Below, one piece after another: positions 39,685 to 47,962 of a stretch of DNA of 64,000 bases. Source of the DNA: an uncultured Gammaproteobacteria bacterium (GTDB lineage Bacteria; Pseudomonadota; Gammaproteobacteria; Magnimaribacterales; TMED112); assembly GCA_913052565.1 (NCBI GenBank), contig CAJXFH010000002.1, positions 39,324 to 103,323 of the forward strand. Direction: 5' to 3'. The number at the start of each line of letters is the position of its first letter. Positions within the stretch are counted from its first letter, which is position 1. A program made the position numbers and the translations under genes. The notes below the pieces were generated by a model. It saw only the letters and a program-made list of their open reading frames with translations, was not told the DNA's origin and searched no databases.

Positions 39685-39935
39685 TTTTGCTCCTCTGTTA
39701 ACTTAAAATTAACAATTATTAAAAATGATACTATATCACAATATAATTGGAAGTTATAATAACTATAATTGATATTTATAGTACGACAATATAAATGGTA
39801 TTTATGGCTGTTTACTAAAAAAAAATCTTCATTCTCTATGCCTTTGAATCTGAGCCCCTAAAATTCAAACTTTTAACAATTCTTTTTTGTTGCATGAACG
39901 ATGCATTCATATAGTATTAAGTTATCTAAATATTT

Positions 39936-41216
39936 ATGGAATTCATAATAGAAAATTTTTATTTAATTTTAGCCTCAAGTATTATTTTTGGCTTTTTTAT
40001 GGCATATGGAATAGGCGCAAATGATGTTGCTAATGCCATGGGAACCTCTGTTGGTAGCAAAGCTTTAACACTTACCCAGGCTTTAGTGATTGCTGCAATA
40101 TTTGAATTCTTAGGAGCATATTTTGCAGGAGCATCTGTAACCGCAACAATTAGAGAGAACATTGTTGATCCAAGCCTTTATGATGATTCACCAGATGTCT
40201 TTGTTCTTGGCATGATGGCAAGTTTGCTTGCAGCAGGTGCTTGGCTATTAATTTCAACGACTTTTGGCCTTCCTGTATCTACAACACATGCAATTATTGG
40301 AGCCATTGCTGGATTTTCAATCTACTACATTGGTTGGGCATCAGTCAGCTGGACTTATATTTTAGGCGTTACATTTTCATGGCTCATAACACCATTTCTT
40401 GCAGCTGTACTTTCAGGTTTGCTTTATTACAGTGCGAAAAAACTTGTGCTTACTGCTGAAAAGCCAATTGAAGCAGCACGACAATTCATACCAATGTATG
40501 CCGGTTTGGTGGGTTTTAGTATAGCGGCTATAACTCTCAACAAAGGACTAACTAATACACAAGTACCAATTTTAATTTCTGAGTATTTCGCGGGTTATGA
40601 TTTGATAGCAACAATATTTGGTATTGCATTATTTGTTGCGCTTCTTTGTTATGCCATTTCAAGATTTCTTTTATCACATTATGTAAGCAAATCTGATAAT
40701 CCAAATGTTGAAGGTAAGTTTGCAATATTGATGATATTCACTGCATCCTCAATTGCTTTTGCTCATGGTTCTAATGATGTCGCAAATGCTGTAGGACCAA
40801 TGGCAGCAGTAGTTGCCACTATTGAGAACCTTGGTCAGATAAATACTGTTGCAGTGATACCTGAATGGATCTTACTCACGGGAGCAATAGGAATAGTAAT
40901 TGGTATGCTTACGCTTGGTTATAAGGTTATAAGAACTGTTGGAGAAAAAATTACTAAGCTCAAACCAAGTAAAGGTTTTGCTGCCGAAATGGCAACTGCT
41001 ATTGTTGTTGTAGTGGGAAGTGTGGCTGGAATTCCTCTTTCAACAACACACACATTAGTTGGAGCAGTAATTGGAATAGGTGTTTTTAGTAGCAATAAGG
41101 TCAATTATAATTCCGTGATTCAAATCGGAGCATCTTGGCTCATAACAATTCCTGGTGGTGCAATTCTTTCAATAATCTTTTTTGTACTGTTAAAATCTAT
41201 TTTCGGAGTAGCTTGA
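39936..41216 (+). CDS. pit: inorganic phosphate transporter, PiT family
   Basis: 426 aa, polytopic, with the duplicated PiT signatures GANDVANAMGTSVGS and GSNDVANAVGP. Confidence 0.9.
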   Translation: MEFIIENFYLILASSIIFGFFMAYGIGANDVANAMGTSVGSKALTLTQALVIAAIFEFLGAYFAGASVTATIRENIVDPSLYDDSPDVFVLGMMASLLAAGAWLLISTTFGLPVSTTHAIIGAIAGFSIYYIGWASVSWTYILGVTFSWLITPFLAAVLSGLLYYSAKKLVLTAEKPIEAARQFIPMYAGLVGFSIAAITLNKGLTNTQVPILISEYFAGYDLIATIFGIALFVALLCYAISRFLLSHYVSKSDNPNVEGKFAILMIFTASSIAFAHGSNDVANAVGPMAAVVATIENLGQINTVAVIPEWILLTGAIGIVIGMLTLGYKVIRTVGEKITKLKPSKGFAAEMATAIVVVVGSVAGIPLSTTHTLVGAVIGIGVFSSNKVNYNSVIQIGASWLITIPGGAILSIIFFVLLKSIFGVA

Positions 41217-41704
41217 TGGAGTTTGAATATTGGATTGAATTGGTAAACAAAATAGTGAATATAATCACAGGGCCAGCGGTGATCTTTAGTGTCTGGTTTC
41301 TTGTTGCGCAAATACAAACTCAAATTAAAGTCGGTAAGGCAGCATCTCGTCAATCAATTGCAGAAGCACATCAGGAAGTTACTCTTGCAGGCCTTGACCC
41401 ACTTTTAATGAGAGCCAAATTGAAACTTATAAAAAAAGAAGAGTTATCTATTGATGAAGAAGTTGGTTTAAGAATACATATGACAGCAATTTTAAGAGCA
41501 AGAGAAAATCACTTTTATCAACATAAGATGGGCATGTTAGATGACGAAGAATGGAAAACCATGAGAAAAGCACTAGGAACGTTATTTATCGATAACACAC
41601 TAAATCTGGATATTTGGAGTAAAAGTAAATCAACTTTTAATCCTGAGTTTGTCCGTATAGTTGACGAAGAAATAGAAATGAGAAAGGATACCTTTAAAAA
41701 ATGA
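41216..41704 (+). CDS. hypothetical single-TM helical protein
   Basis: 162 aa counting from the ATG that overlaps the pit stop (TGATG). It has an N-terminal TM (IITGPAVIFSVWFLVAQI) followed by a charged helical region. No family is recognised. The track start 41135 lies inside pit. Confidence 0.5.
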   Translation: MEFEYWIELVNKIVNIITGPAVIFSVWFLVAQIQTQIKVGKAASRQSIAEAHQEVTLAGLDPLLMRAKLKLIKKEELSIDEEVGLRIHMTAILRARENHFYQHKMGMLDDEEWKTMRKALGTLFIDNTLNLDIWSKSKSTFNPEFVRIVDEEIEMRKDTFKK

Positions 41705-42789
41705 GCGACAAAACCCAACTAAAATTCATCTCAAAAGCTTTGCTTATGCATCAAAGACCATTTCTTATTACAAAGACAGATGGAGATGTTCTTTGGATTA
41801 ATAACGCTGGAAAATACATCTTTTCAATGGAAGATAATGACAAGCTTGATCTTATCTTTGTTGATAAAAAAGACTTAGATAAAGCTAAGTTTGATTCAGA
41901 TATAGCAGACTCATTCGATGTATTTTTAAAAATAAATTTAAGGGCACAAAGTCTCTATATGCGTGTGCTTTTACATGTAATACCTGTAGAAGATGAAAAT
42001 TATTATTTGGTTGAATTTGTTTCAAACTCAAAAGAAAATCTCTTCGCCTTAAAAACTGTTATATCTTGTTTAGAAAATGATCGAATAGGTATGTATTATC
42101 AAAAGCAGTACAGGCTTACTGGTAAAAAAGAAGTCACAGGTGTTGAAGCGCTGATTAGGTTTTTCAATGAGGATGGCTCAATTATTCCTAATGACAAGAT
42201 TATTCCTTATATCGAAGGGGAAAGTATTTTTTCTCTTGTGGTTACTTCTTCCATGAATCTAGTAAAAGAGTTTTTTGATGCGAGAAAGGAAAAGGGTCTT
42301 GACGGAACAACTTTATATTTTAATGTTTCTGCACACACAGTTCTGCATAAAGACTTTTTATCAATATTTAAAGAATTCATAAATAGCTCTGGAATAAAGA
42401 AAGGTGATTTTGGTATTGAAGTTACTGAAACAGCAGAACTGAATAATTTATCTTTAGCATCTTTGAGATTATCAAGTATTAAGAATCTTGGTGTTTCAAT
42501 AGCATTAGATGATTTTGGGGCTGGCTACTCAGCTCTAAGATATTTAAAGGACTTACCTATAGACCTTCTCAAGCTTGACAAAAGTTTTACCAATGAAATG
42601 GCTGAGGCACACAATCAAAGCTTAATTCAGATTGCAAAGCTCATGGCTGATTCATTATCTATGGAATTTATTTGTGAAGGGTTGGAAGAAGAATGGCAGA
42701 TTGAGAAAGCCATTTCTTTAGGCTGTGAGCGCGGGCAGGGGTATTTCCTTCATAAGCCATGTAGCCTTGATGACCTAAATAATGAATAA
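41701..42789 (+). CDS. PAS-like sensor + EAL domain c-di-GMP phosphodiesterase
   Basis: 362 aa. The N-terminal ~110 aa are PAS-like (PFLITKTDGDVLWINNAGKYIF). The EAL signature set is intact: EALIRF, FNVS, EVTE, DDFGAGYS, KLDKSF, EGLEEE, GQGY. Confidence 0.85.
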   Translation: MSDKTQLKFISKALLMHQRPFLITKTDGDVLWINNAGKYIFSMEDNDKLDLIFVDKKDLDKAKFDSDIADSFDVFLKINLRAQSLYMRVLLHVIPVEDENYYLVEFVSNSKENLFALKTVISCLENDRIGMYYQKQYRLTGKKEVTGVEALIRFFNEDGSIIPNDKIIPYIEGESIFSLVVTSSMNLVKEFFDARKEKGLDGTTLYFNVSAHTVLHKDFLSIFKEFINSSGIKKGDFGIEVTETAELNNLSLASLRLSSIKNLGVSIALDDFGAGYSALRYLKDLPIDLLKLDKSFTNEMAEAHNQSLIQIAKLMADSLSMEFICEGLEEEWQIEKAISLGCERGQGYFLHKPCSLDDLNNE

Positions 42790-44221
42790 GAAAGAAAAGA
42801 TAATTCTTACACAAATTAAACAAGATTTTACTACCCCTGTTGATGCAATTTCTGATTATATAAACCTCATAATAGATAGCTCAGATATTTATGAAGATGA
42901 AATATCAGATGAATTTGAAAATATAAGAAAATCTTCTAGGACTTTAAGAGTTAATTTTAATGAGGCATTTTCTGAGTATGCTGAGCTTAAAAAGAAAACA
43001 ATCGCAAATGACGAGGAAGCATCTATCCTTAGGCATGATCTCCGTACACCTCTTAATGGAATAATAGGATACAGTGAAATTCTGATAGAAGATTATGAAG
43101 ACGACATAGACGAAAAACATAATCAAGATTTAAACCACATAATTGATTTAGCAAAAGAAGTTGAGGGAGCAATTTCAAGATTTGTCGATTTTCTTAAAGG
43201 TGGAGCTGAAAAAGATGCTGAAGAACAATCAGATGATGATAGTGCCGAAAACTTATTTAGTTCACTTGGGAAAATTGAGTACAAGCTTGAAATTATTGAT
43301 GAAATTAAGGAAGCAAAAATACTTGTTGTCGATGATATAAAAACAAATTGTGATGTTCTAAAAAGAAGACTTGAAAGTTTTGAATTTAAAGTTGATGTTA
43401 GCATGTCAGGCAAAGACGCTTTGGAGCAAATTTCAAATAATAAATATGATCTTGTCCTTCTGGATGTACTTATGCCTGAGGTTAATGGTTTAGAGGTGTT
43501 AATAAAGATTCGAGAACAATATTCAGCAGATAAATTACCCGTAATAATGGTTTCTTCATTTGATGATGTTGAAAGCATCTCGAAATGCATTCAGCTTGGG
43601 GCGTCAGATTACTTGTCAAAACCTGTAAATTCGACAATTCTCACACAAAAGGTGGCTTCGACACTTGAAAGAAAATCATTAAGAGAAAGAGAAGAACAGC
43701 TTCTATCAGAGCTGCATAGGCAAGCCATTACTGACGAAATGACGGGTATTCCGAATAGAAGATATGTTTTTGATCATTTAGAGAAAAGTTTTGATGACAT
43801 AGAAAAAAATTCAAAGGAACATTTTGCAGCAGCAATATTCGATATTGATCATTTCAAGCATGTGAATGATACTTACGGTCATGCCGCTGGAGATGAAATA
43901 ATCAAGAAGGTCAGTAATATTGCTACTTCAGTTGTAACAGCTCCTGATATATTTGGAAGAATAGGCGGCGAAGAATTTTTAGCTGTGGTTTATAACAATT
44001 CTAAGAATCATCTAGAACAAATTTGTGAAAAAATAAGAACAAGTATTGAGAATGAAGAAACTTTATTTGATAATCAAAAAATAAGAGTAACAATAAGCGG
44101 CGGTGTTTGCTTTAGTGATGAAAGCACCAGTGTTTCTGATTTGGTAAACAAAGCTGATGAAAGACTCTACCTTGCCAAGAAAAATGGCAGAAATAGATTC
44201 TATTTAAGTGAGGAAACGTAA
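42782..44221 (+). CDS. tandem DHp(HisKA-like) - REC - GGDEF protein (diguanylate cyclase response regulator with kinase-less His module)
   Basis: 479 aa. Residues ~11-65 form a degenerate H-box helix hairpin (QDFTTPVDAISDY). Residues ~80-139 form a canonical H-box (RHDLRTPLNGIIGYSE, His85). There are no N/G1/F/G2 ATPase boxes. The REC domain is complete (DD184-185, D228, S, K). The GGDEF domain has GGEEF, and the RxxD I-site position reads TAPD. Confidence 0.85.
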   Translation: MNKKEKIILTQIKQDFTTPVDAISDYINLIIDSSDIYEDEISDEFENIRKSSRTLRVNFNEAFSEYAELKKKTIANDEEASILRHDLRTPLNGIIGYSEILIEDYEDDIDEKHNQDLNHIIDLAKEVEGAISRFVDFLKGGAEKDAEEQSDDDSAENLFSSLGKIEYKLEIIDEIKEAKILVVDDIKTNCDVLKRRLESFEFKVDVSMSGKDALEQISNNKYDLVLLDVLMPEVNGLEVLIKIREQYSADKLPVIMVSSFDDVESISKCIQLGASDYLSKPVNSTILTQKVASTLERKSLREREEQLLSELHRQAITDEMTGIPNRRYVFDHLEKSFDDIEKNSKEHFAAAIFDIDHFKHVNDTYGHAAGDEIIKKVSNIATSVVTAPDIFGRIGGEEFLAVVYNNSKNHLEQICEKIRTSIENEETLFDNQKIRVTISGGVCFSDESTSVSDLVNKADERLYLAKKNGRNRFYLSEET

Positions 44222-44580
44222 TGGCTTACATTTTAATTGTTGAAGATAATGAGATGAACAGAGATATGCTCGGTAGAAGGCTTGAGAGAAGAGGGTTTGA
44301 AATTCAATTTGCTCTCGATGGCCAAGAAGGTCTGGATAGTATGAGAGCAAGAAAACCTGATTTGGTTTTAATGGATATGGGCTTACCTGTATTAGATGGT
44401 TGGCAAGCTACGTCCCAAGCTAAAGAGGATCCTGAACTCAAAGATATACCTATTATTGCTCTAACAGCTCATGCTTTAGAAACAGATAGACAAAAAGCTC
44501 TAGCAGCAGGTGCAGATGATTTTGATACCAAGCCAGTCGATATAAAGAGATTGCTAGAAAAAATAGGTAAATTTATTTAG
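44221..44580 (+). CDS. stand-alone receiver (CheY-like) response regulator
   Basis: 119 aa with ILIVEDNE, LVLMDMGLP, ALTAH and DTKP. Its start overlaps the upstream stop (TAATG). Confidence 0.9.
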   Translation: MAYILIVEDNEMNRDMLGRRLERRGFEIQFALDGQEGLDSMRARKPDLVLMDMGLPVLDGWQATSQAKEDPELKDIPIIALTAHALETDRQKALAAGADDFDTKPVDIKRLLEKIGKFI

Positions 44581-47500
44581 AGTCTTCGCCCTTTAAAATC
44601 TGATTCACTTCATTAACCAACGTTTGAACTTTTGACTCTTTCTTAACAATGCCCTCAGTGAATTTGCTTAACATTTTTTCTTCAACTGCTGTAATATCCT
44701 TTCCTGAAAAAACAACAATAGGAATTTTAATTCCATCCTCTTGAGTTCGCTCAATAAATTCGAAGCCATCCATTTTTGGCATATCTAGGTCTAAAACAAT
44801 GAGGTCTGGTTTCTCCTTAACTCTTTCTAATGCATCTTCACCATTTTTGGCATCAATTGAAAGATAACCCTCATTATTTAGAATTTTGTTTAAAAGGTCT
44901 CTTGTATTTTCATCATCATCAACAATTAATACTTTCTGATTTTTTTCTGTTATATATCTTTTAACGATATTGAGGAAAAAAGTTCTATCAATTGGCTTCT
45001 TCATATAATCATCAGCACCAAGTGAAGTCGCAAGACTCTCTTCATTTAAAACTGATGTAATTACTACAGGGATATCTTTTAGTTTTTTGTCTTTTTTTAA
45101 CTCTTTTAAGACAGACCAACCATCTCTTCCAGGCATTAAAACGTCAAGCAATATGAGCTTAGGAGTATTTTTCCTTGCTTGTTCTATCCCTTCATCTCCA
45201 TCAAAACAACTAAAGACTGTATGACCCTCTTTTTTGATTGCCCTTTTTACAACATCGTGAGTAGCTTTATCATCATCTACCAAAAGAATATATTCATCAC
45301 CGTCTTTAATATCTGGATTTTCAAAATCCTCATCTTCAACTGTTTCCTCATCTATTGAAACGCGGGGTACATATATGCTGAATGTACTTCCTTCTCCAAC
45401 TTTGCTTGATACTTCTACACCCCCGCCCATCATTTCAGCAAAATGCTTTGATATCGATAATCCGAGACCGGTACCACCATACTTTGCGCTTGTAGACCTT
45501 TCAGCCTGAGTATATGTGTCAAATAATTTACCTAATTGTTCTTCTGACATTCCAATACCTGTATCTTTAATATCAAAGTTAACAAATTCTTTACCATCAA
45601 CATCTTTAGAGGTAATGACTAATGCAACTTGTCCATTCTCTGTAAATTTAAAAGCGTTACTCAAGAAATTTACGATACATTGTCGAAGCTTTGTCTCATC
45701 ACTTGTCATTTCACCACCAATATTATTTTTGATAATAAATTCATTATTATTCTTAGCAGCTAAAGGATTCGACACATCTTTAATTGTTTCAATCATCACA
45801 TCTATATTGAATGGAGTGAAATACATATCCATTTTTCCTGCTTCTATCTTCGATAAATCAAGAACATTATTAATAAGAGATAGAAGGTGTTTGCTTGAAT
45901 TAGTAATTCTTTTAAGATCCGGTACCATGTCATCATTGCCTAAATCCTCGCAATCCTCTAAAAGCATTTCACTATATCCAATAATAGCGTTTAGCGGTGT
46001 TCTAAGCTCATGCGACATATTTGCGAAGAATCTAGATTTTGCCGAACTCGCTTCACGGGCTTCGTCTCGTGCAGTTGCCATTTCTTTTGTTTTGAGATCA
46101 ATCAAAGCATTAACTTCATCTGACATTCTTGAAAACGCAAGCTCCATCATTTCAACTGATGCTTCCTCAGCTTTTTCATCAGAAGCTTCATTTACAAGAT
46201 TCTTCATATTCTGAACATCTTTTTGAATAAGAGTTTTGGCTTCGCCTTCTAATTTTTCAGATAATATGCTCATCTTTTTAATGATCACTTCATCTCTTTG
46301 TTTTCTACGCTCAGCTCTATCTTGTCTAACTGAATCCATTTCAAGTAAGTGATTTCTGTATCTCGCTAGTGCGTTAGATAATTGCCCAACTTCATTAGTT
46401 TCTGAGGACAGAAAACCTTTATTAGACGGGATGGTTTTTTTGGTATCTCCTTTTGTAAGTGCCTCGAGGACTTCAATAGCTTGCGCAATTCTACTAAAAG
46501 CACCATCTTGCACCCACCAAATTGCTAAAACTATAAGAATGATCACGCCAAATGTGAAAATAATAGAATTTAATGTTGAGTCTCTTAGTTCTTTAAGATC
46601 GTTGGCAACATTCTTGATTACAAAAAATAAAGCAAAGTCAGGGTTAACAGTTGATGCAACAGGTACTGAAGTTAATGAAAGTCCAAGTGCCTCAAAATTT
46701 TTGGAATTCATGTTTTCGAGACCATTTTTTAGAATATCGTTTTTAATATAATTAAAACTAACTTGATTAATGCCAAGTGAGTCGTCTTGAGATAGGCCAT
46801 CAGTAAAAACTGCATCAATAATTTTGTTTTGACTTACAATTCCAGTACGAACACCAAGATCACTTTCAAATACTGTCATTGACTGCCTAAGATCTCGACC
46901 GAGTATCACTGATCCTAAAAGTTTATTGGTATTGAATCCAAACTCATTTTTTAAGTAGATTGGAAAAGCTACGATTTGATGCAAATTTATATTTCCATTT
47001 GGAGCTTGAGCATAAATTACCTCGTTTGTAACGCTCATCCTGCTTCTGATTTTTTCTAGGAATGCTCCTGTTGAATCGTCTCTAAGAAAATTAAGATCAT
47101 TTGAATCGCCACAAACATCTATTGAATTACCTACATCTGCCCAGTCAAAGGCATAAAGACAAGTAAGCTCTTCATTATTCTCATTGAAAAGTTTTATAAA
47201 GCTTATGTTCCCTTCATCAATTTCGTCTAAGAACATTTCATCCACTAAAATAAAAAGATCGCCTCGAAGCTCTTGATCGAAAGATTCAATTAATGCATTC
47301 GCGTAGTCAAAACCTTCTATACCAATTTCTGTGAATAGACCAATTTCAACGTAAGGATTCCAGTATTGCTCACCTTTCTCTCCATTTGGCCCCCAAGAGT
47401 TCATATTTGAAAAACTGTTATCTATGGACTGAACCCATGCTGATTCTACAATGCTTGTATATTGACTGTTAGATGATTTTTCTTGAATGCTCTGATTCTG

Positions 47501-47581
47501 AACATTCATATATAGCAATGTGCCAGCAATAATAATATTGCCTATTAGACCAAATATAAGGATTTGGGTTCTTACAAGCAT
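44573..47581 (-). CDS. hybrid sensor histidine kinase (TM - periplasmic domain - TM - HAMP - HisKA - HATPase_c - REC - REC)
   Basis: 1002 aa with the H-box MSHELRTPLNAIIGYSE, N-box NFLSNAFKFT, G1 DTGIGM and G2 GGTGLGLSI. Both receivers are complete (LLDVLMPGRDG and VLDLDMPKMDG). The ~310-aa periplasmic region is unclassified. Confidence 0.9.
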   Translation of the reverse strand: MLVRTQILIFGLIGNIIIAGTLLYMNVQNQSIQEKSSNSQYTSIVESAWVQSIDNSFSNMNSWGPNGEKGEQYWNPYVEIGLFTEIGIEGFDYANALIESFDQELRGDLFILVDEMFLDEIDEGNISFIKLFNENNEELTCLYAFDWADVGNSIDVCGDSNDLNFLRDDSTGAFLEKIRSRMSVTNEVIYAQAPNGNINLHQIVAFPIYLKNEFGFNTNKLLGSVILGRDLRQSMTVFESDLGVRTGIVSQNKIIDAVFTDGLSQDDSLGINQVSFNYIKNDILKNGLENMNSKNFEALGLSLTSVPVASTVNPDFALFFVIKNVANDLKELRDSTLNSIIFTFGVIILIVLAIWWVQDGAFSRIAQAIEVLEALTKGDTKKTIPSNKGFLSSETNEVGQLSNALARYRNHLLEMDSVRQDRAERRKQRDEVIIKKMSILSEKLEGEAKTLIQKDVQNMKNLVNEASDEKAEEASVEMMELAFSRMSDEVNALIDLKTKEMATARDEAREASSAKSRFFANMSHELRTPLNAIIGYSEMLLEDCEDLGNDDMVPDLKRITNSSKHLLSLINNVLDLSKIEAGKMDMYFTPFNIDVMIETIKDVSNPLAAKNNNEFIIKNNIGGEMTSDETKLRQCIVNFLSNAFKFTENGQVALVITSKDVDGKEFVNFDIKDTGIGMSEEQLGKLFDTYTQAERSTSAKYGGTGLGLSISKHFAEMMGGGVEVSSKVGEGSTFSIYVPRVSIDEETVEDEDFENPDIKDGDEYILLVDDDKATHDVVKRAIKKEGHTVFSCFDGDEGIEQARKNTPKLILLDVLMPGRDGWSVLKELKKDKKLKDIPVVITSVLNEESLATSLGADDYMKKPIDRTFFLNIVKRYITEKNQKVLIVDDDENTRDLLNKILNNEGYLSIDAKNGEDALERVKEKPDLIVLDLDMPKMDGFEFIERTQEDGIKIPIVVFSGKDITAVEEKMLSKFTEGIVKKESKVQTLVNEVNQILKGEDSK

Positions 47582-47590
47582 TTTGAAAAA

Positions 47591-47962
47591 TTATTCGTCT
47601 GCTAACTTGAATGTGAAACGAGCCGTTACATCATTAACAGTTACAGGAACTCCATTATAGACGTAAGGTTCATAAGCCCACCTTCTAATCGTTCTCATTA
47701 CACTTCTTTCAAAATAACCTGGTTGGTCAGTATCTGTGACATAAGGATCAACAACTTCACCTTCAGGTGAAACATCAAACTCAACTACAACAAATCCCTC
47801 AGTACCACGTCTAAGTGCTGATCTTGGGTAATCTGCAGATGGTGAATATATCCTTTCAACTGAAACTTCTATTACTTCACCGTTAACAGTAATACTACCT
47901 TCATCACTTGCTGGGAAAAGCGCTAGAGAGAATAATAAAAATAAACTTGATAGGTATCTCAT
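47591..47962 (-). CDS. periplasmic TonB C-terminal-domain protein (no TM anchor or Pro-rich linker)
   Basis: It has the signal peptide MRYLSSLFLLFSLALFPA. ADYPRSALRRGTEGFVVVEFDVSPEGEVV matches the TonB_C pattern YP..A...G.EG.V.V.F.V...G.V. The track TTG start at 47980 is an alternative. Confidence 0.75.
   Translation of the reverse strand: MRYLSSLFLLFSLALFPASDEGSITVNGEVIEVSVERIYSPSADYPRSALRRGTEGFVVVEFDVSPEGEVVDPYVTDTDQPGYFERSVMRTIRRWAYEPYVYNGVPVTVNDVTARFTFKLADE

Follow-up and report, generated by a model that had tools for sequence, protein, structure and literature searches.

How a phosphoryl group could be passed on from a hybrid histidine kinase with receivers, when no HPt is recognizable, is the question raised by a convergent SAR86 locus in the window analyzed here (the whole stretch of 64,000 nt). 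The genes considered are the following:

39936–41216, plus strand: Pit/PHO4 phosphate transporter gene (pit); Pfam PHO4, 2.8e-107
41216–41704, plus strand: 162-aa protein of no known family with one N-terminal TM segment; gene 1 of a SAR86-specific six-gene unit
41701–42789, plus strand: EAL c-di-GMP phosphodiesterase; EAL domain at 42070–42759, weak PAS-like N-terminal domain at 41758–42021
42782–44221, plus strand: cyclase gene (DHp-DHp-REC-GGDEF); Pfam GGDEF, Response_reg and HisKA
44221–44580, plus strand: single receiver, 119 aa, DivK-like; Asp52 at 44374–44376; Pfam 3e-27
44573–47581, minus strand: hybrid histidine kinase, 1002 aa, a membrane protein with the Pfam domains listed below
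47591–47962, minus strand: TonB_C protein, 123 aa, secreted; Pfam TonB_C, 7.3e-17

The gene coordinates agree with the chain of plus-strand genes given in the preliminary description, with overlaps of 1 nt between pit and the 162-aa gene (TGATG), 4 nt between the 162-aa and EAL genes (ATGA), 8 nt between the EAL and cyclase genes, and 1 nt between the cyclase and single receiver genes (TAATG), as well as with the 8 nt shared by the 3′ ends of the single receiver gene and the convergent kinase gene. The inclusion of pit in the locus was not upheld: it lies outside the conserved unit and is missing from SAR86 loci L007–L009, while in the near-identical contigs L001–L006 it is present, being translationally coupled to the unit in that lineage only. 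The TonB_C gene, located 10 nt upstream of the kinase gene on the same strand and annotated with a length of 123 aa in metagenome contigs, is a member of the SAR86 unit and takes the same position in L007, L008 and L009; its product may work with the kinase as a periplasmic partner. The 162-aa protein has a hydrophobic segment at residues 13–31 and no Pfam match at E ≤ 10; its homologues are found in SAR86-type marine contigs only, with the gene in the equivalent position in L007 and L008 (36–37% identity). In these two loci, the EAL gene also lies upstream of the cyclase gene. The EAL protein (Pfam EAL, 1.4e-44) has all of the motifs EAL, EVTE, DDFG, KLDK, EGLE and QGY, and the PAS domain previously assigned to it reaches only 14.7 bits in Pfam (PAS_9), below the 27-bit cut-off.

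The kinase is composed of the following parts:

46571–47503, minus strand: periplasmic region, with TM segments at residues ~5–25 and ~334–362
46337–46513, minus strand: HAMP-like linker
45836–46042, minus strand: HisKA, with His524 at 46010–46012; Pfam 3.2e-21
45362–45700, minus strand: HATPase_c, with N, G1 and G2 boxes; Pfam 1.1e-25
44951–45292, minus strand: REC1, with phospho-Asp D813
44606–44932, minus strand: REC2, with phospho-Asp D931

The two receivers are recognized as Response_reg stretches (Pfam, 7.4e-42), and the protein stops 10 residues past REC2, with no C-terminal HPt. The nearest NCBIfam models are BarA, TorS and LuxQ, all below their cut-offs. A HAMP domain, which had been claimed for the kinase, was not detected by Pfam even at E ≤ 10, and the L007 orthologue scored just 17.7 bits. 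The aromatic switch position of REC2 is occupied by an aliphatic residue, a change discussed as a mark of intermediary receivers (PMC9981736).

No match to Hpt (PF01627) was obtained at E ≤ 1 in the seven locus proteins or at E ≤ 10 in their unassigned parts, the HxxKG motif is not present in the locus proteins, and no HPt is recorded among the genes within 10 kb. The same picture was obtained for the gene cassette described below: Hpt was not found in ten cassette kinases with different sensors, and neither an HPt gene beside the cassette nor any extra conserved gene accompanying it was found in 38 loci from many phyla. The absence of a canonical HPt, which had been proposed for this locus, is borne out by the Pfam scan of the seven proteins and adjacent genes. 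The domain inventory likewise withstood Pfam and motif analysis, comprising two His boxes (kinase H524, cyclase H85), one ATPase domain, one intact EAL, one intact GGEEF, and four complete receivers, each with the acidic pair, phospho-Asp, T/S and Lys.

A candidate for the missing step is found at the N-terminus of the cyclase protein, which is organized as follows:

42788–42985, plus strand: hairpin 1 (residues 3–68), a degenerate DHp copy with Gln14 (42821–42823) in place of His
43010–43201, plus strand: hairpin 2 (residues 77–140), a HisKA-type DHp with H-box RHDLRTPLN; His85 at 43034–43036
43202–43315, plus strand: linker (residues 141–178), aligning with the first strand and helix of a kinase ATPase domain
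43316–43666, plus strand: receiver domain, with Asp228 at 43463–43465; Pfam Response_reg, 3.8e-28
43724–44197, plus strand: GGDEF diguanylate cyclase domain; Pfam GGDEF, 3.3e-40

When compared by hhalign, hairpins 1 and 2 match with 98.5% probability (E 1.5e-15), Q14 being aligned to H85, and by this sequence comparison the N-terminus is an internal DHp duplication. The earlier reading as DHp-DHp holds as regards the two copies, but copy 1 has Gln instead of His and Pfam detects copy 2 only. In alignments A1 and A2, Q14 does not vary. Hairpin 2 (Pfam HisKA, 1.5e-11, 44.6 bits) shares 44% identity with the DHp of the neighbouring kinase, its profile matches the DHp domains of HK853, GacS, RetS, DivL and EnvZ, and R84, H85, P90, N92, G96 and E99 are unchanged even in relatives at 21–29% identity. 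No ATPase domain (HATPase_c) was detected by Pfam after hairpin 2. Across the linker, the profile alignment to HK853 continues with high posterior probability beyond the DHp and covers the beginning of the CA domain; in the AF2 model this segment has a pLDDT below 50 and a short helix at 154–160. The linker probably represents what is left of a former CA domain.

In the AF2 model, residues 1–140 form four ~30-residue helices with loops of 6, 8 and 6 residues (pLDDT above 90; pTM 0.71), the helices of hairpin 1 spanning residues 3–32 and 39–68 (pLDDT above 90). The two hairpins are predicted to pack as one single-chain four-helix bundle, with a domain-swapped dimer as the alternative. A Foldseek search with the module model retrieved single-chain four-helix bundles only, over 120–135 columns, with no specific match to HPt, Spo0B or ChpT and every E-value above 0.08; the sequence match of the module to ChpT was not significant (E 0.66). 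Many family members have one hairpin without His (Gln, Tyr, Arg or others instead), and nearly every member keeps His in at least one hairpin. Modules with His in both hairpins are the commonest type (26 of 62 representatives at 50% identity), and the pattern of one His per module, observed in the genome loci, does not hold throughout the family. The preliminary description recognized that the module carries an H-box but counted it merely as such. If phosphotransfer needs a further step here, this tandem, ATPase-less, kinase-derived predicted four-helix bundle, with a His conserved across phyla, is the strongest candidate for it.

In the output part of the cyclase, GGEEF occupies residues 395–399 (43964–43978), and TAPD (residues 386–389, 43937–43948) stands in the position of the RxxD I-site; the motif positions confirm the suggested loss of this site. 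The protein matches the PleD family model (NCBIfam), and its full-length model matches DgcR (6zxb; E 3.6e-24), PleD and WspR in Foldseek. The best solved relatives of the single receiver are PleD REC1 and DivK (E about 6e-22), and it is the most conserved part of the cassette, with a mean pairwise identity of 67% across phyla. The key receiver residues are conserved in 39 of the 39 family members examined, and all four receiver classes retain the full phospho-acceptor set. The alpha1 signature N-R-x-[ML]-L-x-R-R-L is common to the single receiver and the module's own receiver, while the kinase DHp and the module DHp have in common the alpha1 segment after the His, with almost identical residues; these shared features fit receivers docking on both histidine domains. 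In a crude identity test, a module DHp did not pair preferentially with the kinase DHp of its own locus (own 0.38, others 0.375, p = 0.19).

Comparison of 38 module loci revealed a conserved three-gene cassette, a putative phosphorelay, consisting of a kinase-REC-REC without HPt, a DivK-like single receiver, and a DHp-DHp-REC-output protein. A kinase-REC-REC is present in 34 of the 38 loci, a ~120-aa receiver in 36, and both in 32, most of them directly adjacent; the remaining four, in which no kinase-REC-REC was called in full, have kinase-like ORFs or lie at a contig end. The cassette was found in SAR86, SAR116, rhizobia (including pSymB of S. meliloti), Gemmatimonadota, Verrucomicrobia, Planctomycetes, Acidobacteriota, cyanobacteria and Chloroflexi, and the genes occur together far more often than chance would allow. 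Within SAR86, the six-gene unit is found again in lineages with only 36–47% protein identity and different flanking genes. Co-location of the convergent unit in relatives had been set beforehand as a refutation test, and the kinase and cyclase/receiver genes were found together. The architecture, described earlier as lying outside known layouts, is instead one form of a widespread three-gene cassette. A literature search found no paper describing it.

Taking as observed the domain content, the tandem-DHp duplication, the lack of a CA domain, and the conservation of the His box and of the cassette, we infer the phosphotransfer steps, the donor receiver to His85, the activation of the cyclase and the signal as set out here. 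There is about an even chance that the cassette operates a His-Asp-His-Asp relay, with His85 serving as its second histidine and the module as a Spo0B/ChpT-like transferase fused to a response regulator. A periplasmic signal, possibly sensed together with the TonB_C protein, would start autophosphorylation of kinase His524, from which the phosphoryl group would pass to a receiver Asp, either D931 or D813 of the kinase and/or, in a Spo0F-like manner, D52 of the single receiver. The receiver Asp would then donate to His85 of the tandem-DHp bundle, and His85 to the tethered Asp228, whose phosphorylation would switch on the GGEEF domain, as in DgcR, PleD and WspR. The c-di-GMP formed would be removed by the EAL enzyme encoded immediately upstream, and with no RxxD I-site, product inhibition would be absent.

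Such a route from kinase to single receiver, DHp His and receiver-output protein would parallel KinA > Spo0F > Spo0B > Spo0A and Pak > SdrG > PhyT > PhyR. Among DHp-type proteins, Spo0B serves phosphate transfer alone. PhyT (PMC5898713) and RedE (PMC2755868) are likewise limited to this function. In common with Spo0B (Bacillus), ChpT (Caulobacter), PhyT (Sphingomonas, PMC5898713) and RedE (Myxococcus, PMC2755868), the module is predicted to be a four-helix DHp bundle of kinase origin that carries a phosphorylatable His but does not autophosphorylate; these four pass phosphate from one receiver to another, as proposed for the module. Their bundles, however, are homodimers in which a (pseudo-)CA domain is kept, whereas the module has two hairpins in one chain, Gln for the first His and a short CA remnant, and is fused to the terminal receiver and an enzyme. 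The RedCDEF "four-component" system of Myxococcus has an equal parts list (kinase, dual receiver, His-containing kinase-like protein, single receiver), and its kinase-like protein is phosphorylated from a receiver only (PMC2755868). RedCDEF consists of four separate proteins, with a CA domain in RedE and no fused enzyme output, while the cassette has its dual receiver as part of the kinase polypeptide and its kinase-like module joined to the receiver-enzyme.

The same His-Asp-His-Asp logic is found in ArcB, BarA/GacS and TorS and with the free HPts LuxU, ShpA and HptB, and the transmitter and receivers of the kinase score best against the BarA, TorS and LuxQ models. Unlike those canonical-HPt systems, the cassette has no PF01627 domain or HxxKG, and its second His would belong to the response regulator and lie within a HisKA-type fold. 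In cyanobacterial CyaC (REC-HisKA-HATPase-REC-cyclase) and Dictyostelium ACR, a class III cyclase is under the control of a DHp and a receiver within the same protein; both keep a working ATPase domain and autophosphorylate. In contrast, the cassette output proteins have lost the ATPase domain and need a separate kinase. As regards the output, residues 177–473 of the cyclase resemble DgcR of Leptospira (PMC8041772; NCBIfam, 2.5e-53; Foldseek 6zxb, E 3.6e-24, 32% identity). The cyclase has the receiver, helical linker and GGEEF domain in common with DgcR, WspR and PleD, and differs from them in the additional N-terminal tandem-DHp module and in TAPD for RxxD.

The Caulobacter DivJ/PleC-DivK-PleD system, with its divK-pleD operon, resembles the locus in having a DivK-like receiver gene and a receiver-GGDEF gene with one kinase for both, and a branched two-component system of this kind, without a relay, is the main alternative here, possible if rather unlikely. 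His524 would phosphorylate D228 and D52 directly, the kinase receivers would be sinks or autoregulators, and the bundle would be a docking, phosphatase or allosteric module, such as a DivL-like pseudo-kinase surface binding the DivK-like receiver or its own receiver. The relationship of the single receiver to DivK and PleD REC1, the match of the cyclase to the PleD family model, and the DivL DHp among the PDB matches of the module are in line with this reading, and the alpha1 residues shared by the module and kinase DHps make direct kinase-to-receiver transfer sterically plausible, so that the kinase could phosphorylate both aspartates without a relay. The module H-box keeps D-x-x-T (E/DxxT/N at this site is reportedly a phosphatase motif), conservation of the H-box could also be expected for a phosphatase or docking role, and His is lost from one hairpin in many members, as in His-less pseudo-kinases. 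However, docking or phosphatase activity alone needs no His, although nearly all members have retained it, within a complete H-box, in one hairpin or both across great evolutionary distances, and the kinases are BarA/TorS/LuxQ-like hybrids with terminal receivers, which normally feed a second histidine. PleD is REC-REC-GGDEF with an I-site, while the locus cyclase is DHp-DHp-REC-GGDEF without one, the locus kinase is a hybrid with two receivers, and most family outputs are class III cyclases rather than GGDEF.

It is improbable that a canonical HPt encoded elsewhere in the genome links the kinase to the receivers, leaving the DHp module as a dimerisation or structural element only. Many hybrid kinases do use unlinked HPt proteins, ShkA-ShpA-TacA reportedly being an example, and the genome was inspected over 64 kb only; but none of the 38 loci has an HPt gene beside the cassette, its three genes travel together while the flanks change, and a purely structural element would not require the His of the invariant module His box. 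Phosphorylation of His85 in trans by the ATPase domain of the neighbouring kinase, which would make the cyclase a second DHp-REC arm of a split kinase, is highly improbable: it would leave the two conserved, complete receivers of the kinase and the single receiver without a role, and an intramolecular bundle, if formed, could not heterodimerise with the kinase DHp, even though the 44% identity between hairpin 2 and the kinase DHp and the CA-like remnant in the linker would suit it. Finally, the two operons are convergent and have no single shared transcript, as would be the case if functionally unrelated operons were neighbours by chance; chance proximity is effectively refuted by the six-gene unit kept in SAR86 lineages (36–47% identity, different flanks) and by the adjacency of the three core genes in 32–36 of 38 loci across phyla.

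The SAR86 locus is the SAR86 version of the conserved three-gene cassette. The outputs fused to the module and receiver vary among GGDEF, class III cyclase, PP2C and GAF-kinase, with class III cyclase as the usual output and GGDEF in SAR86, and such interchangeable outputs are what one would expect if the module and receiver form a signal-receiving front end.

The locus lies in the low-GC (~33%) window, whose nearest protein relatives are labelled SAR86 cluster. All of the genes and overlapping junctions listed in the preliminary description are present in the window as described:

39936-41216 (+), pit; TGATG junction with the next gene, 1-nt overlap
41216-41704 (+), gene for an uncharacterised 162-aa protein; ATGA junction into the EAL gene
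41701-42789 (+), EAL gene; 8-nt overlap into the cyclase gene
42782-44221 (+), gene for the 479-aa cyclase protein; TAATG junction into the receiver gene
44221-44580 (+), gene for the 119-aa single receiver (Pfam REC)
44573-47581 (-), gene for the 1002-aa kinase; convergent, its 3' end overlapping that of the receiver gene by 8 nt
47591-47962 (-), gene for a 123-aa TonB_C protein, 10 nt upstream of the kinase gene

Pfam analysis agreed with that description on the main domain content (EAL; HisKA-REC-GGDEF; REC; HisKA-HATPase_c-REC-REC), and the four receivers are indeed complete, with an acidic pair, a phospho-Asp (D228 in the cyclase protein, D52 in the single receiver, D813 and D931 in the kinase), T/S and Lys in each. 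Two further assignments were not confirmed: a HAMP domain had no match in this kinase and just 17.7 bits in its orthologue at the divergent SAR86 locus L007, and the proposed PAS domain of the EAL protein reached 14.7 bits (PAS_9) against a 27-bit cut-off. The EAL domain appears intact, as had been stated, judging by a profile match (Pfam, 1.4e-44) and by the catalytic residues (EAL, N, ExxE, DD, K, E, Q) read from the sequence. The GGEEF motif is intact, and the RxxD position reads TAPD. A scan for promoters and terminators gave results close to those of shuffles (42 sites vs. 41 expected). The top promoter-like site of the region (10/12 matches) is found at 39719-39747, within a 250-bp AT-rich gap upstream of pit (39685-39935).

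The claim that the locus lacks a recognisable HPt module also held for the proteins scanned, their leftover segments and the genes within 10 kb. The Hpt profile (PF01627) had no match at E<=1 in seven proteins, and none at E<=10 in the first hairpin of the cyclase N-terminus (residues 3-68), in the N-terminus and linker of the kinase, or in the 162-aa protein; Hpt is absent from the precomputed Pfam matches of genes within 10 kb. There is no HxxKG motif around His85 of the cyclase protein, this residue lying within RHDLRTPLN, a HisKA H-box. The kinase carries no C-terminal HPt and stops 10 residues past REC2.

In Pfam, the N-terminus of the cyclase protein contains a single HisKA domain (residues 77-140, 44.6 bits vs. 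a 26.9-bit cut-off), which corresponds to hairpin 2, and no HATPase_c domain is found in the protein. BLASTP of hairpin 1 against hairpin 2 detected no internal repeat (E 9.3). The duplication was revealed only by profile-profile comparison, hairpin 1 being seen by hhalign alone (98.5% probability, E 1.5e-15, 60 columns, with Q14 opposite H85). Because this comparison of the two halves shows a tandem duplication, the label DHp-DHp proved to be right, with the first copy having lost its His. Relatives were gathered by an exhaustive HMMER search with residues 1-178, and the matches span the whole N-terminus. Their first segment follows the pattern [RK]-Q-[EQ]-x-x-x-P-x-x-A-I, an H-box with Gln replacing His, and Q14, L55, R84, H85, P90, N92, G96 and E99 are invariant in alignments down to 21-29% identity. 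AlphaFold2 predicted four helices (residues 3-32, 39-68, 77-104 and 111-148) for this tandem-DHp module, with pLDDT >90 to residue 140 and a pTM of 0.71. In Foldseek, the predicted module aligned only with single-chain up-down four-helix bundles, all with E >0.08 (for example, 1x90 over 135 columns, and 7m5t with a TM of 0.78 normalised to the target), and no HPt was found among these matches.

DHp domains matched by the family profile are those of HK853 (2.6e-12), GacS, RetS, DivL and EnvZ, and hairpin 2 shares 44% identity with the DHp domain of the neighbouring kinase. The profile alignment runs on for ~35 residues into the first strand and helix of the kinase ATPase (CA) domain, which suggests that the module derives from a hybrid kinase by loss of the ATPase domain. 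The part aligning with the CA start is a disordered linker that joins the DHp bundle to the receiver (43202-43315, +), and it looks like a remnant of the deleted domain. Members of the Spo0B/ChpT class have a DHp-like bundle with a His, do not autophosphorylate with ATP, and relay phosphate between receivers; the module, with His85 and no ATPase domain, resembles them in domain content only. No significant sequence relationship to Spo0B or ChpT was observed (the ChpT entries 4fmt and 4fpp score E 0.66-0.76).

The distribution of histidines was compared in the genome loci and in 50%-identity representatives, both of which are query-biased samples. Among the matches listed for the genome loci, most modules have one His: ~15 are Gln/His, ~15 are His/other (with Tyr, Arg, Phe, Val or Ala as the partner), and a few are His/His. 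A strict one-His rule fitted the genome loci and was rejected as a general one, since His/His is the commonest type among the representatives (26/62). At least one complete H-box is almost always kept in this domain without ATPase. In the Gln/His subfamily, which includes SAR86 and S. meliloti, Gln is invariant at the Q14 position. In some relatives, the tandem-hairpin unit occurs two or three times ahead of one receiver and cyclase; these are P0126 (906 aa), P0131 (833 aa), P0132 (733 aa; Gln24, His92, Gln216, His288) and P0225 (1355 aa; matched by the query in seven stretches). In two loci on long metagenome contigs (L087, 8001-9599; L088, 8001-9598), the module is called as a gene (213-243 aa) separate from the receiver-cyclase. 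These free-standing genes were not used as evidence of an HPt-like protein; they may be frameshift artefacts, because the neighbouring genes are broken, clearly so in L087.

The module gene belongs to a cassette that also includes a kinase-REC-REC gene and a ~120-aa single receiver gene. When one genome per species was scanned with the module alignment as the query, at least 80 loci were obtained, the ORFs of which were annotated by phmmer with the window's own domains as queries. Among 38 listed module-gene loci, kinase-REC-REC was found in 34, the receiver in 36 and both in 32, while the four loci without a complete kinase-REC-REC call have kinase-like ORFs or reach a contig end. All three genes are present and adjacent in the window. 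The usual order among the listed loci is kinase, receiver, module gene, spaced 0-500 bp apart. According to the record titles, the taxa include SAR86, SAR116, Rhizobium, Methylocystis, Arenicella, Gemmatimonadota, Opitutaceae and other Verrucomicrobia, Planctomycetales, Acidobacteriota, Myxococcota, cyanobacteria and Dehalococcoidia. Conservation of the convergent unit in relatives was thus borne out, the kinase and the cyclase/receiver genes being co-located in SAR86 loci and across phyla. The convergent kinase orientation is seen in the three SAR86 loci L007-L009, and most non-SAR86 cassettes lie on one strand. The sensors of the cassette kinases vary (dCache+HAMP, PAS_7, GAF, 4HB_MCP) around a constant transmitter-REC-REC core. 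No Hpt was detected in ten cassette kinases with differing sensors, and no extra conserved (small) gene was found near the cassettes among the matches listed.

The cassette is also present on pSymB of S. meliloti 1021 (NC_003078.1, 362000-372000), where the cyclase gene occupies 367,812-369,374 and the module has the Q18/H88 pattern. In S. meliloti Ak57, it is located on a ~1.66-Mb megaplasmid (CP090105.1; 2079-7548 of locus L089), the record of which is titled pSymA, the position being homologous to pSymB of 1021. The cassette occurs in 67 Sinorhizobium records. In an annotated S. meliloti strain, all three genes are named just "response regulator"; immediately 5' of the kinase gene is a DUF3365 gene. 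Databases give only general names ("adenylate cyclase", "signal transduction histidine kinase", "response regulator"). A literature search outside which most subscription journals fell turned up no account of the cassette, tandem DHp modules or these S. meliloti genes, so earlier work is possible.

In SAR86, the cassette is part of a six-gene unit (unknown TM protein, EAL, cyclase and receiver, convergent with kinase and TonB_C), the products of which share 36-47% identity, the receiver 77-78%. The genes flanking this unit differ between lineages, and pit lies outside it. The 1-nt overlap of the pit stop with the start of the unit occurs in this lineage only; a gene for a 771-aa secreted protein takes the place of pit in L007. 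The 162-aa protein has one N-terminal transmembrane segment and is otherwise helical. Its gene was found in SAR86-type contigs only, always overlapping and directly 5' of the EAL gene, and its product may be a phosphodiesterase anchor or regulator. As a hidden HPt it was rejected because of the TM anchor, the lack of HxxKG and of any profile match, and the restriction to SAR86. The small secreted protein consists of a TonB C-terminal domain alone, and its position upstream of the kinase is kept in all SAR86 loci (47591-47962 (-) in the window; L007, 14799-15197; L008, 14812-15231; L009, 4592-4981). TonB_C genes also adjoin the cassette in two Verrucomicrobia loci (L023, 8209-8868; L030, 7449-8114). 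A role as periplasmic co-sensor is possible, as is a coincidental association.

The window kinase is a hybrid histidine kinase with H, N, G1 and G2 boxes and two complete C-terminal receivers, and differs from the unorthodox kinases ArcB, BarA and TorS in lacking a C-terminal HPt after the receiver. Its NCBIfam scores are all below the cut-offs, and no sensor family was found for its ~310-aa periplasmic region in the Pfam/NCBIfam scans. All four receiver classes retain the phospho-acceptor residues across cassettes. Kinase REC2 has Ile/Val/Leu at the beta5 aromatic switch position, and loss of this aromatic has been discussed as an indication that a receiver is a non-allosteric intermediary (PMC9981736). 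The mean pairwise identity of the single receiver across phyla is 67%, compared with 41-51% in the other receiver classes, which suggests constraints from several partners. This value (44221-44580 (+) and genes in L007-L085) spans Proteobacteria to cyanobacteria and Chloroflexi; between SAR86 lineages the receiver is 78% identical, and the other proteins 36-47%. Its best solved relatives are PleD REC1 and DivK. Since the single receiver has an alpha1 helix (N-R-D-M-L-x-R-R-L) similar to the one in the module's own receiver, and the residues after the His are nearly the same in the kinase and module DHp domains, both receivers could dock on either histidine domain. The module DHp and the kinase DHp gave no signal of locus-specific co-evolution (p=0.19).

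The rest of the cyclase protein matches DgcR, PleD and WspR, with which it shares a receiver with phospho-Asp and a GGDEF domain with GG[DE]EF. In cyclases of this type an RxxD inhibitory site would stand 5 residues before GG[DE]EF; TAPD is found here at residues 386-389. RxxD is missing in all SAR86 orthologues examined (TAPD, STPD, KSPN, ESPS, TSPN, SKPN; window TAPD at 43937-43948, +), and is kept in two distant GGDEF-type relatives of the same architecture, P0137 and P0138 (RSND and RSTD, in this order). The PleD model scores 240 bits, below its 474-bit cut-off; PleD is REC-REC-GGDEF beside a single-domain DivK-type receiver, while the cyclase protein has one receiver and the DHp module beside a DivK-like receiver (7.8e-22). 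In relatives, Pfam shows the module-receiver front end fused to GGDEF, class III nucleotide cyclase (most often), PP2C/SpoIIE or GAF-kinase domains. In some of them (L038, 5089-6585; P0166, 1102 aa; P0134; P0148), a complete kinase (HisKA-HATPase, in some cases with GAF) comes after it, which suggests kinase-to-kinase cascades built on the same front end.

We see about an even chance that the locus encodes a His-Asp-His-Asp relay in which His85 serves as the second histidine. Kinase His524 would be phosphorylated first and would donate to a receiver Asp, which may be D931 or D813 in the kinase itself and/or D52 in the single receiver; the phosphoryl group would then reach His85 of the tandem-DHp bundle and the tethered D228, activating the GGEEF domain. 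As there is no I-site, it would be left to the co-transcribed EAL enzyme to remove c-di-GMP. In this scheme, the module would act as a transferase of the Spo0B/ChpT/PhyT type carried on a response regulator (for DHp-type transferases, see PMC5898713 and PMC2755868). The likeness among the receivers and among the DHp domains fits a Spo0F-like shuttle. We infer all of the phosphotransfer steps, the signal, and the roles of the TonB_C and 162-aa proteins.

The same likeness of the receivers' alpha1 helices and of the DHp residues also permits direct phosphorylation by the kinase, as in a branched DivK/PleD-like system where the bundle would be a DivL-like docking or phosphatase surface; this is the chief competing model, possible if rather doubtful. 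An unlinked HPt elsewhere in the genome is very improbable, and phosphorylation of His85 in trans by the kinase ATPase domain more improbable still. Chance juxtaposition of the genes is excluded by the conserved synteny. An unlikely further reading is that the bundle is two-faced: the His85 face would transfer phosphate, and the Gln14 face would be a His-less docking site, which either binds the phosphorylated single receiver, as DivL does DivK~P, or dephosphorylates it by its amide side chain, by analogy with the catalytic Gln/Asn of CheZ, CheX, Rap and NarX-type phosphatases. If so, one small domain would integrate transfer with reset or gating for the whole cassette, which would account for the single receiver being its most conserved component (67% across phyla).

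A phosphorelay with a DHp-type transferase is already a known kind of system. The new elements would be the predicted single-chain pseudo-dimeric DHp, its placement on a response regulator and the widely conserved three-gene cassette; to our knowledge, there is no earlier case of such a pseudo-dimer, or of a phosphotransfer domain on a response regulator rather than on a kinase. The downstream wiring of many hybrid kinases is obscure because no HPt partner is known for them. If the module is the second histidine of the relay, a pathway would be assigned to a whole class of HPt-less hybrid kinases with dCache, PAS, GAF or 4HB sensors in at least 10 phyla, ending in cAMP/cGMP or c-di-GMP enzymes or PP2C phosphatases. 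The copy on pSymB makes the relay directly testable by genetics in a tractable model organism, S. meliloti 1021. SAR86 is an abundant ocean bacterium, uncultured and with a small genome; in it the unit represents a rare sensory circuit and implies c-di-GMP signalling in a planktonic, streamlined cell.
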